From a virus (taxonomy: Duplodnaviria; Heunggongvirae; Uroviricota; Caudoviricetes), in the IMG/VR virus record IMGVR_UViG_2703718861_000013: a stretch of 64,000 nucleotides of DNA; one strand, 5' to 3'. Positions within the stretch are counted from its first letter, which is position 1, and every line of letters starts with the position of its first letter. The notes beneath the pieces were generated by a model. The model saw nothing but the letters and a program-made list of their open reading frames with translations, was not told where the DNA came from and did not search any database. The position numbers were made by a program, and so were the translations under genes. Of the stretch, positions 22,818 through 25,019 are shown piece by piece.

Positions 22818-23309
22818 ATGATGTTCAACAACAACAACTGGAAGCTGTCAGTCACCGACATCAACCTTTATGAAAACACTGTGAGTCTGGACGGTCAATC
22901 CTATCCGTTGTCGCTCGCTATCAAGACCCTGATTCCGGGCTACCTGTCAGGACTGCCGTCTACCAGCCGTGAGTCTATGGAGTTACTGGAAGCTCTGGCT
23001 GAAGCTGGTGTAGCTATTGGCAACTTCTTCAGTAATGACCTGATGACCGCCTATGGTCGCCGCCAGCAGAACAAGCGAGCTGAGGCTGAGCGTATCGCTA
23101 AAGAGCAGCGCATTCAGGCCGAGCGCATGCGTGAAGAGAACATGACTGATGCAGAGTGGCAGAAAGAGCTACAGCGCCGCGAACAGGTCAAAGCTGAACG
23201 CCGGACCTATGGTGAGAACCTCCGCAGTGCTACCCATTCCGCTGGTCGCTCCCGTGCCGCTATTGTCGCTGACCTTGAGTCAGGCGGTAACTGGCTGGAC
23301 AGCTTATAA
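22818..23309 (+). CDS. hypothetical protein with charged coiled-coil segment (scaffold-like?)
   Basis: 163 aa; GAGGAG RBS; ...KRAEAERIAKEQRIQAERMREENMTDAEWQKELQRREQVKAERR. Confidence 0.5.
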   Translation: MMFNNNNWKLSVTDINLYENTVSLDGQSYPLSLAIKTLIPGYLSGLPSTSRESMELLEALAEAGVAIGNFFSNDLMTAYGRRQQNKRAEAERIAKEQRIQAERMREENMTDAEWQKELQRREQVKAERRTYGENLRSATHSAGRSRAAIVADLESGGNWLDSL

Positions 23310-23393
23310 GACACACAGTCCCTGACCCGATGTTAGGGACTCCTCAGTTTTGAGGACTCACAGTATTTAAACTAATTTAGGAGATTGATTATT

Positions 23394-24380
23394 ATGACGA
23401 TTAAAGACGCTTTCCAGTTTGGCATTGAGCCAGTACGCATCACCGATACCGACAACATTCAGGTCAATGAAGGTCTGCCGACTAACGCTGACCCGCAGGT
23501 CTACGCCCTCCAGTTAGCTAAGACGGTTAAGGCTATGCTGAACGGTGTACTTAAGGACGCTCAAGAGAACATCCCGTTCCCTGTAGAAGTCCTGCCGACC
23601 CGTAACAGCTTACCGACCCCAATCATTGCCCACACTCTGACTGACCGCTCTGTGGTCGTTCCTGTCCGTGGTGGCAAGCGACCTGAAGTCGTGACCGTTC
23701 CGTCTGGACAAGAAATCGTGGTCGAACCAATCGAGCAGGCTATTCTCATCTCTGAGCAGACCAAGCTCTGGGACGCCAAGTCATCCACCGGATTCACTCA
23801 GGGCACACTTCAGCAGGACGCTATGAACATCTGTGAGAATGTGGTCCGTACCATCAACGCTCGCATGGTCGACGTTCTGGAATCCTCTAAGCTGCTGAAG
23901 ACCGTAGAGCTTCCTGTCCTGACTGGTAGCCTGACCGCTAAGGCAGACGCTATCATGGACGCTCTGTATGAGAACACAGAGTCTTCTTTCGGTTCTGAGG
24001 TGTCTGACTACGGTATTATCGCTCATGAGAGCCAACTGAAAGCACTGTCCCGTCTGGCTGCTAAGCAAGGCTTCTCCGGTGAAGACGCTATCGTCGATAT
24101 GCTGGGAACAGACATCGCCTACTACAACGGTGAAGACAAGGGTGTATTCATGCTGGCTAAACGCTTCACGGCTCTGAGCTTCGGTTGCTTCCGTCACGAT
24201 GGCGAGAATATTACGGTCGTCCTTTCACGTGATGGCGACTCTCAGTCCCACGACTTGGAAATCCTCGGTAAAGTGTTCGTTGTCGCTGAAGCTGCTACGA
24301 CCATCAAGATGGGCACTGGCTCAGCTACTGCCGTCCTGCCTGTAGTCAAACGCCTGAAGTTCACCAAGACCGAAGCGTAA
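23394..24380 (+). CDS. hypothetical protein (328 aa), possibly structural
   Basis: ATG at 23394 with AGGAG RBS (track start 23385 is TTG); no enzymatic motif recognised. Confidence 0.55.
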   Translation: MTIKDAFQFGIEPVRITDTDNIQVNEGLPTNADPQVYALQLAKTVKAMLNGVLKDAQENIPFPVEVLPTRNSLPTPIIAHTLTDRSVVVPVRGGKRPEVVTVPSGQEIVVEPIEQAILISEQTKLWDAKSSTGFTQGTLQQDAMNICENVVRTINARMVDVLESSKLLKTVELPVLTGSLTAKADAIMDALYENTESSFGSEVSDYGIIAHESQLKALSRLAAKQGFSGEDAIVDMLGTDIAYYNGEDKGVFMLAKRFTALSFGCFRHDGENITVVLSRDGDSQSHDLEILGKVFVVAEAATTIKMGTGSATAVLPVVKRLKFTKTEA

Positions 24381-24385
24381 GACCA

Positions 24386-24625
24386 ATGGGTAAGAGCATT
24401 AGTAAAGGCTTCAGGTCCATCGCCAAGGGCCTGACAGGTGGTGGTGGGACTCAAGGTGGGGCTTCGGTCCCGCCTCCTGTAGCTCCTCCTGTAGCTCCTC
24501 CAGATGACGCTCAGCAAGCTGTAGTCGATACCCAAGGTCAGGAGACCGAGGGAGGTAAGACCATGAGCAGAGGTAAGTCTGGACTGAATATCAGCAGGAC
24601 TTCAGGTGGTGGCCTGTCACTGTGA
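24386..24625 (+). CDS. small Gly-rich protein resembling T7 gp7.3-type virion protein
   Basis: MGKS... start and ...RGKSGLNISRTSGGGLSL end resemble T7 gp7.3 (MGKK... / ...GKKSLSVARSSGGGINI) as I recall it. Confidence 0.45.
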   Translation: MGKSISKGFRSIAKGLTGGGGTQGGASVPPPVAPPVAPPDDAQQAVVDTQGQETEGGKTMSRGKSGLNISRTSGGGLSL

Positions 24626-24863
24626 TTAAGACATCTATACAGCCTGTGGAGGGTGGACGATATCAAGCAACAATCTGGATGACACGCAGAGTCTATAAGC
24701 GGCTATGCTGGTCACTGGCTGAAGCTGAACAGTGGGTGAGACGTAAAGTGCCTACCGTTCAATCGTTCCAATCATCATGATAACTATGGTCTGGACCAAT
24801 GGTCTGGACCTTTGTTTTGTACTAGTTATCTAGTGCAGTAGTACAATAGACGAAGGAGGCTTT

Positions 24864-25019
24864 ATGTCTATGACTTCCGCAGACCTAAGGTCCCTCCTGA
24901 CTCTGGTCTATAAACTCGTGTTCCTCTCTGTGGGTCTCTATATGGTCCTCTCCGGTCGACTCGGTGTGAATGTATTCGACACTCTGTCTAAGGCTGTGGG
25001 TGGGCTTCTGGGGGCTTAG
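24864..25019 (+). CDS. small hydrophobic protein (51 aa)
   Basis: GAAGGAGG RBS then ATG; MSMTSADLRSLLTLVYKLVFLSVGLYMVLSGRLGVNVFDTLSKAVGGLLGA. Confidence 0.35.
   Translation: MSMTSADLRSLLTLVYKLVFLSVGLYMVLSGRLGVNVFDTLSKAVGGLLGA

Follow-up and report, generated by a model that had tools for sequence, protein, structure and literature searches.

A capsid-encoding island within a ynfE-like gene: a candidate satellite of virulent T7-like phages

Few phages have been studied and used (in phage therapy, display and expression systems) as much as T7 and its relatives, and to our knowledge no natural satellite of any of them is known. Here we describe an island of ~6.56 kb that may be such a satellite. 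It lies in a 64,000-nucleotide (nt) stretch of DNA (IMG/VR record IMGVR_UViG_2703718861_000013), the whole of which is referred to as the window. In this stretch, an earlier note had flagged positions 22818-25019 as a possible structural module that includes a small protein resembling T7 gp7.3.

Satellites with a capsid gene of their own, and satellites of virulent phages, have been described. In SaPIbov5, the protein Ccm is a recognisable homologue of the helper capsid protein and co-assembles with it, which results in size redirection. In contrast, the protein of 328 amino acids (aa) that we predict to be the capsid protein of the island has no detectable sequence similarity to the presumed helper gp10. 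Like the island, PICMIs and PLEs are small, integrated and dependent on a virulent helper. The PICMIs have a similar size of ~6 kb and encode no structural proteins, and we know of no report of helper-RNA-polymerase promoters or of an own capsid gene in PICMIs or PLEs. The Streptomyces satellites MiniFlayer and MulchMansion are much larger than the island, and we know of no report of a promoter-level link to the helper polymerase for them. They are unrelated to the island in host and helper type; helpers of the virulent type and encapsidation proteins encoded by the satellites themselves are reported for them (PMC10690885). For PLE, remodelling of the ICP1 coat with an external scaffold is reported (PMC10945586). 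The cf-PICIs, such as EcCI2, are about twice as large as the island, encode a protease, a portal, head-tail adaptors and a small terminase, steal only tails and have temperate helpers, according to published descriptions (10.1101/2022.09.08.507074). An own capsid gene is common to cf-PICIs and the island. Besides this gene, the island has just two small partners and, in some copies, gp7.3. It is wired to the RNA polymerase of a virulent podophage, and portal, protease, adaptors and small terminase are not present in its 6.56 kb.

No sid, psu, delta or alpha primase gene of P4 and no alpA, pri-rep or capsid-redirection gene of PICIs was found in the island upon comparison with Pfam, PHROG and NCBIfam. 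A full-text literature search yielded no description of a satellite of a T7-like phage or of an island that combines T7-class promoters with a capsid gene, but this search was not exhaustive and a prior description is possible. The island and its relatives most likely represent a new, previously undescribed family of capsid-encoding satellites.

Phage promoters, capsid protein and gp7.3 homologue

We consider it probable, with considerable room for doubt, that the flagged region represents the module for morphogenesis in a minimal capsid-encoding satellite of virulent T7-like phages, which is induced by the helper polymerase. Computed support comes from gene content, the HK97 fold, gp7.3 homology, promoter identity, attachment (att) sites, family conservation and purifying selection. 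The island has the hallmarks of a satellite: an integrase and att sites of its own, an incomplete set of virion and replication genes, and promoters which in silico link it to a helper. Its genes, promoters, operon end and boundaries are as follows (dN/dS is the ratio of non-synonymous to synonymous substitution rates).

18695-18705, no strand: attL core AGTTCCAGATG (11 nt), left junction of the island in the ynfE-like gene
18771-20354, plus strand: tyrosine integrase, 527 aa (Pfam Phage_integrase E=1.8e-13; phrog_1 E=3.3e-42; dN/dS 0.18)
20713-20735, plus strand: P1, promoter-like site TTGATTATCACTATAGGGGAACC for a phage single-subunit RNA polymerase, with an exact match to TCACTATAGGGRRA and the core ...ATTATCACTATAGGGGAACC at 20722
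20765-21133, plus strand: 122-aa protein (phrog_23123 E=1.1e-8; dN/dS 0.12)
21142-21164, plus strand: P2, K1F/EcoDS1-type phage RNA polymerase promoter CCTAAACTATCACTATAGGGAGA, with ...CTAAACTATCACTATAGGGAGACCA at 21143-21167 and the predicted +1 at 21159
21794-22552, plus strand: KilA-N domain protein, 252 aa, putative regulator (Pfam KilA-N E=1.3e-9; phrog_129 E=1.5e-17)
22554-22721, plus strand: 55-aa protein, which opens the conserved three-gene core (dN/dS 0.08; no family match)
22818-23309, plus strand: 163-aa protein, directly 5' of the capsid gene
23394-24380, plus strand: predicted HK97-fold major capsid protein, 328 aa (family absent from Pfam, PHROGs and NCBIfam)
24386-24625, plus strand: 79-aa gp7.3 homologue of the Kayfunavirus type, starting with MGKS... 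and ending with ...RGKSGLNISRTSGGGLSL
24622-24780, plus strand: open reading frame (ORF) for a basic 52-aa protein, overlapping the gp7.3 stop codon; 100% conserved in a Leclercia relative (L014)
24788-24820, plus strand: strong stem-loop with T-run, operon end (10-bp stem with 6 GC pairs, then TTTGTTTTGT; free energy dG -16.6 kcal/mol, z=-3.5)
24864-25019, plus strand: single-pass hydrophobic 51-aa protein with its own ribosome-binding site, 3' of the terminator
25258-25268, no strand: attR core AGTTCCAGATG, the same 11-nt core as in attL

The island is integrated within a gene for the A subunit of a ynfE-like dimethyl sulfoxide/selenate reductase. The disrupted gene is read as ynfE because its neighbours are ynfD, ynfC and speG, and joining the outer flanks restores the ynfE reading frame (...PIKFIWNYAGNT). 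In this copy the att sites are intact and there are no pseudogenes. Among 5426 complete genomes of Escherichia coli, only 26 carry most of the island.

The nine ORFs code for the integrase, the 122-aa protein, the KilA-N protein, the 55-aa and 163-aa proteins, the capsid protein, the gp7.3 homologue, and the 52-aa and 51-aa proteins. No portal, terminase, tail, protease, polymerase or primase family was detected among them in Pfam, PHROGs and NCBIfam. The gene set for a virion and for replication is thus incomplete, from which we conclude helper dependence. All ORFs of the island are under purifying selection, with dN/dS values of 0.08-0.31 relative to an 81%-identical relative (0.31 for the 79-aa ORF and 0.23 for the 51-aa ORF), and are therefore considered to be real genes. 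Distant homologues of the 122-aa protein are hypothetical proteins of virulent phages, and the 52-aa protein is without a family match in Pfam, PHROGs and NCBIfam.

Both promoters are located outside the flagged span and yet, as judged from the sequence, they are decisive for its interpretation. The T7-class promoter core TCACTATAGGGRRA has only two exact matches in the 64-kb window, and both are in the island, on the gene strand and 5' of genes. P1 has its predicted +1 at 20730, 35 nt 5' of the ORF for the 122-aa protein, and shows partial matches to Kayfunavirus-type phages. P2 (positions 21143-21167) matches K1F and the phi10 promoter annotated in EcoDS1 at 25 of 25 positions; phi10 is the promoter ahead of the capsid gene of EcoDS1 itself. 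Promoters of this type occur at up to 8 places per phage genome (EcoDS1/K1F). P2 appears to head an operon which contains the flagged genes and ends at the 24788 terminator. As the promoter type and the gp7.3 type (see below) are both those of Kayfunavirus, this would be the genus of the helper, which would thus be of the K1F type and not T7 itself. If the island is a satellite, a K1F/EcoDS1-type Kayfunavirus is most likely the helper for the copy in this window.

The four ORFs that the earlier note had placed at 22818-23309, 23394-24380, 24386-24625 and 24864-25019 were confirmed. The second of these codes for 328 aa when started from an ATG that is preceded by AGGAG, and for 331 aa when started from a TTG nine bases upstream. 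Its product had been suspected to be structural, and it did not turn out to belong to a non-structural family: the structure model has the fold of an HK97 major capsid protein, with N-arm helix, E-loop, spine helix, and P- and A-domains. This model was built from 36 sequences and replaced a first one from 12 close sequences, which was poor (predicted local distance difference test score, pLDDT, of 47.8).

Comparison with Pfam, PHROGs and NCBIfam gave no match for the 328-aa protein or for 36 relatives. Searching the PDB sequences with a profile also yielded nothing, and no match was obtained by tblastn of the protein against 50,697 phage records. Only relatives with at least 70% identity, from Enterobacteriaceae, were found by a word-indexed search, while an exhaustive profile search resulted in 66 relatives, about 30 of which are full-length at 20-45% identity. 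In one distant homologue there is a Big_2 Ig-like domain, such as many phage structural proteins have. Capture of a helper capsid gene was considered and rejected, as the 328-aa protein is without sequence or profile similarity to gp10A from T7 or EcoDS1. On the basis of the model, we therefore take it to be the major capsid protein of an unnamed HK97-fold family.

For the 79-aa protein, the proposed resemblance to gp7.3 was confirmed and, by sequence comparison, goes far beyond chance; the T7 sequence given in the earlier note is correct. Over its full length (residues 1-79), the protein matches PHROG 1320 ('host range and adsorption protein', E=1.8e-11), and it matches T7 gp7.3 with a BLASTP E-value of 4e-6. 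The closest match tested is the 82-aa gp7.3 of Kayfunavirus EcoDS1 (BLASTP E=4e-14, 39% identity over the full length), which is from the same genus as the promoters. With Pfam family PF11653 (VirionAssem_T7) the score is 17.6 bits (E=0.0057), below the gathering threshold of 25; this model is centred on T7 and the 79-aa protein is nearer to the Kayfunavirus type. No match was found by tblastn of the protein against the phage records, which is probably due to low-complexity masking and divergence.

Size, the N-terminal MGKSISK and the C-terminal GK.(S/G)L.(V/I)SR(S/T)SGGG(I/L)S(I/L) loop are shared with gp7.3 from T7 and Kayfunavirus. In this loop, GKSGLNISRTSGGGLSL aligns with GKKSLSVARSSGGGINI from T7 and GKRSLQVSRTSGGGISI from EcoDS1, and the alignment to EcoDS1 gp7.3 spans the MGKSISK start and the C-terminal GK..L..SRTSGGG.S. 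pattern. There are also differences. The centre of the 79-aa protein, rich in Gly and Pro, is less basic than that of T7 gp7.3, and the gene is found on a chromosomal island directly after the capsid gene, whereas phage gp7.3 is encoded between genes 7 and 8. According to cryo-electron microscopy of T7, this C-terminal loop (T7 residues 84-98) anchors six copies of gp7.3 to gp12, the protein of the nozzle, where adaptor and nozzle meet, and T7 particles that are assembled without functional gp7.3 do not adsorb (PMC11784390).

The proposal of a module of virion components is thus backed by the capsid fold and by the gp7.3 homology, but this support does not extend to all neighbouring genes. When the 163-aa protein was compared with gp9 and gp14 from T7 or EcoDS1 (BLASTP, hhalign), no significant similarity was detected, and a Pfam T7_gp14 match (E=0.013), which is below the cut-off, was treated as coiled-coil noise. 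Its description as coiled-coil-rich seems to fit a charged Arg/Glu/Gln-rich segment at about residues 84-135; the C-terminal half is charged and helical. In distant relatives it is conserved in position, always directly 5' of the capsid gene, and in alignment. An orthologue with 94% identity is annotated as 'DUF6971 family protein', and the equivalents from distant islands match DUF6971 weakly.

The 51-aa protein has one hydrophobic segment, in agreement with its earlier description, and shows no alignment to EcoDS1 gp19.5. Its gene lies beyond the terminator and is present (80% identical) in two relatives (L004 and L022) where the capsid protein is only 45% but the integrase 87% identical, while it is absent from elements with the other integrase type. 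It appears to be linked to the ynfE-type integrase and its att arm and not to the capsid module.

A family of related islands

Related loci were found in Leclercia, Buttiauxella, Citrobacter, Enterobacter, Kluyvera, Shimwellia and Escherichia/Shigella, in metagenomes and in predicted viral contigs. The family extends over at least eight enterobacterial genera and keeps a compact architecture of 6-8 kb, with a conserved core next to the integrase that consists of the genes for the 55-aa, the ~160-aa and the capsid protein. For the 55-aa protein, tblastn matches were obtained in the enterobacterial relatives with upstream DNA, except for the Salmonella bongori-like L006, which has a 69-aa ORF at this position without a tblastn match to the 55-aa protein. 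Other parts of the islands vary. The integrases fall into at least two unrelated types that differ in their insertion sites, the regulator gene can be exchanged (the KilA-N protein is replaced by other DNA-binding proteins in relatives), and the genes for gp7.3, the 52-aa and the 51-aa protein are confined to some lineages.

Capsid proteins from Shigella and Leclercia share 98% identity. Near-identical copies across genera, together with the swapped integrases, argue for horizontal mobility. S. flexneri SFBU1023 (CP182556.1) carries two different members of the family (L013 and L019), which have different sites and integrase types, and only one of these has the gp7.3 gene. Relatives of the capsid protein were found only in small integrase islands and never in a full phage genome.

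All of the enterobacterial relatives that were scanned, with the exception of L028, have promoter-like sites in the interval from the integrase to the module, in the orientation of the genes. Most have 2-5, and in L028 the scan detected none. The specificity region from -8 to -12 differs between lineages. In addition to the K1F-type TATCACTATAGGG there is a ACCCTCACTATAGGG-type, which in many cases is followed 26-28 nt downstream by a K1F-type site in tandem. Such ACCCTCACTATAGGG/TATCACTATAGGG tandems occur in L014 (4455-4520 and 5007-5075), L015, L016 and L021, often twice per element, and may allow induction by two different helper genera. The ACACTATAG-types are found in Kluyvera, Shimwellia and Buttiauxella gaviniae, and CCCCGACTATAGAGAG in L006. 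One ACACTATAG-type site agrees at 31 of 31 positions with a promoter annotated in Citrobacter phage CR8, whose genome contains 11 such places. Four TTAATTCCTACCACTATAGGGAGA-type sites occur in a relative with 29% capsid identity, together with a gene that has a Pfam 'Phage_T7_GP04' domain. The variable specificity and the constant core are, taken together, the strongest argument that the helper polymerase is the designed trigger. In the distant island L031 no such promoter sites were found, and it may use a different kind of helper.

A distant member, L030, codes for a 527-aa capsid protein with a C-terminal extension, and has a Phage_T7_GP04 gene at 4806-5240 as well as a ParE-like gene and an HNH gene. 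This gene content indicates that the islands have captured further genes of the T7 group.

In an even wider claim, which we consider just as likely to be wrong as to be right, these islands are the first satellite family to be recognised for virulent T7-like phages (Autographiviridae). They would be minimal islands of 6-8 kb whose only conserved cargo consists of an HK97 capsid gene of their own and its two small partners. They would be induced via helper promoters, without repressor or antirepressor, and would follow their helpers by swapped or tandem specificities (K1F-type, CR8-type, T3/T7-like and one more type), with a captured gp7.3 in some lineages.

Further sequence elements and surroundings of the island

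Upon annotation of the non-coding regions, the following elements were found in addition to the promoters and the terminator.

20432-20467, plus strand: hairpin-forming 28-32 nt, identical to the gene 19/gene 19.5 spacer of Kayfunavirus IMM-002, Pisces and phiYIO1-1
21423-21466 and 21619-21662, plus strand: two 44-nt direct repeats, 95% identical and 196 nt apart, in the untranslated region after P2
21682-21782, plus strand: long imperfect hairpin leader of ~100 nt, just 5' of the KilA-N regulator gene
23317-23341, plus strand: stem-loop between the genes for the 163-aa and the capsid protein (10-bp stem, then CCTCAGTTTT)
25170-25200, plus strand: TGACACAA-type repeats adjoining attR, with a further 20-nt copy at 18863-18882

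The match at 20432-20467 (28-32 nt at 100% identity by blastn, with E-values from 2e-5 to 3e-3) is the only one to the 50,697 phage records for the part of the island that is 3' of the integrase (20355-25200). The gene 19/19.5 spacer of EcoDS1 contains the promoter phiOR. The element may represent a cis signal for packaging or replication. Each of the 44-nt direct repeats contains small palindromes, and they could be iterons or regulator-binding sites. The TGACACAA-type repeats are possible arm sites of the integrase.

The hairpin leader is nearly invariant in 10 loci that have capsid proteins with only 45% identity. It is thus better kept than the proteins, and it is kept even where the downstream gene differs. 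Only 1 of the 36 pairs proposed by RNAalifold is compensatory, so the structure is predicted but unproven. The leader has no match in Rfam. It may be a processing site of the RNase III type or another regulatory or cis element.

The 9-mer GACTCACAG occurs six times in the window, always inside the island, while 0.38 occurrences are expected in 64 kb. Four copies are on the minus strand (20586, 20666, 21712 and 22879) and two on the plus strand (23355 and 25025). Their orientation reverses around the 163-aa gene, and a 14-nt inverted repeat that includes the 9-mer flanks this gene on both sides.

In some E. coli genomes (H6, H16, H20 and H24), one of the island genes is called 'peptidase M16 family protein' by RefSeq. 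This is probably a misannotation; no protein of the window matched a peptidase family. A second mobile region is found beyond ynfF (1756-14791), in place of K-12 ynfG onward. It has a 2806-aa ORF with a zincin-like HEWFH motif, followed by phage-like genes on the minus strand which include two antirepressor-like ORFs. The region at ~45000-51000 has a GC content of 35-40%, compared to ~50% elsewhere in the window, which suggests another horizontally acquired island.

Proposed mechanism and competing explanations

As a satellite, the island would be silent in ynfE until a helper infects the cell. The single-subunit RNA polymerase of the helper would recognise P1 and P2, and P2 would drive the operon that codes for the KilA-N protein, the 55-aa and 163-aa proteins, the capsid protein, the gp7.3 homologue and the 52-aa protein, with a stop at 24788. 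The HK97-fold protein would build a shell of its own, suited to a small genome, for which the 163-aa protein is probably the scaffold. Portal, internal core, terminase, tail and DNA replication would be borrowed from the helper. By analogy to T7, the gp7.3 copy would take the adaptor-nozzle junction and thus complete adsorption-competent tails on satellite particles, and it possibly competes with gp7.3 from the helper. We infer the induction and the roles of the 55-, 163-, 52- and 51-aa proteins in this scheme. The earlier note had envisaged that the element modifies or redirects a helper particle. A link to a helper is strongly supported by the promoters that are identical to those of K1F/EcoDS1, but the helper would be of the K1F type and not T7, and the island seems to build its own shell rather than to merely modify that of the helper.

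Several points weigh against the proposal of a satellite. We infer every step after transcription, namely excision, replication, capsid assembly, packaging and transfer. The class II pause/packaging signal of T7, ATCTGTT, is absent from the island, and blastn of the island against the 50,697 phage records revealed no similarity to a terminal repeat or concatemer junction. The predicted attP junction (...TCCTTGA-AGTTCCAGATG-GACTCCATTG...) was found neither in viral nor in metagenome collections, where an exact 28-nt pattern was used for what is a rare element. As the capsid protein has no similarity to gp10, its co-assembly with a foreign portal and core is an assumption. The role of the 163-aa protein in scaffolding or assembly is putative, being deduced from gene position without support by homology. 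Finally, the gp7.3 gene is found in only a subset of the family and is thus accessory.

In work attributed to Chung and Hinkle (1990), plasmids that carry a T7 origin and the concatemer junction were reportedly packaged by T7, which makes it plausible that a small element can be packaged. Stand-alone contigs of ~6.4-6.7 kb were considered as excised forms of the island and rejected: a contig of 6661 nt is an integrated copy with short host flanks, and another has an ordinary chromosomal context.

An anti-phage function is the alternative that fares best, but we consider it unlikely. The island would then be a decoy or poison, which uses the promoters of the invader as a sensor and produces a non-cognate capsid protein and a gp7.3 look-alike to sequester portal, terminase or nozzle. 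Assembly of the helper would be aborted or its virions would be non-adsorbing, and the island would spread by other means. The promoter wiring would suit such a sensor equally well, and the failure to find a packaging signal, a small terminase or a replication gene in the island, or the exact attP pattern in the viral and metagenome collections, is in line with this. As T7 particles without functional gp7.3 are non-adsorbing (PMC11784390), a competing gp7.3 could be inhibitory, which also speaks for a decoy. However, a decoy has no obvious need for a three-gene assembly core under strong purifying selection, and the near-identical copies across genera with swapped integrases point to efficient horizontal transfer. 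In addition, no known defence model of PADLOC was matched by the island proteins, apart from a KilA-N-domain hit. As interference and satellite transfer normally coexist, the decoy is a partial rather than an exclusive rival to the satellite.

It is very improbable that the island is what remains of a decayed temperate T7-like prophage, with some late genes and promoters left. In favour of this are the T7-class promoters, the gp7.3 homologue and the integrase, and temperate T7-like phages exist, such as Pseudomonas phage LUZ100, which has been described as T7-like with temperate features. Decay is, however, difficult to reconcile with a compact 6-8-kb architecture that has been kept in at least eight genera, with the intact att sites and the lack of pseudogenes in this copy, and with purifying selection on all genes. 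Furthermore, the capsid sequence is unrelated to gp10 of the T7 group and its relatives are restricted to small integrase islands. An encapsulin-like nanocompartment, in which the 328-aa protein would form the shell and the 163-aa protein would be the cargo, is the least probable explanation: it has only the shared HK97 fold in its favour, which is common to phage capsids, dozens of phage capsid proteins score nearly as well, no encapsulin family is above noise in Pfam and NCBIfam, there is no enzyme-like cargo, and the context is an integrase island with phage RNA polymerase promoters and a neighbouring gp7.3 homologue.

If the island is indeed a satellite of T7-like phages, the sensing of the helper through the promoters of its own polymerase would be a new and very economical mechanism, and the island would be one of the smallest capsid-encoding mobile elements. 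The combination of promoter, capsid and gp7.3 would provide a compact natural chassis for engineering, and a testable role would be gained for the unnamed capsid family and its DUF6971-like partners. Such satellites could account for some of the strain-specific resistance to K1F-type therapeutic phages. Through them, strictly lytic T7-like phages would also have a natural means of moving chromosomal DNA among Escherichia, Shigella, Citrobacter and their relatives.

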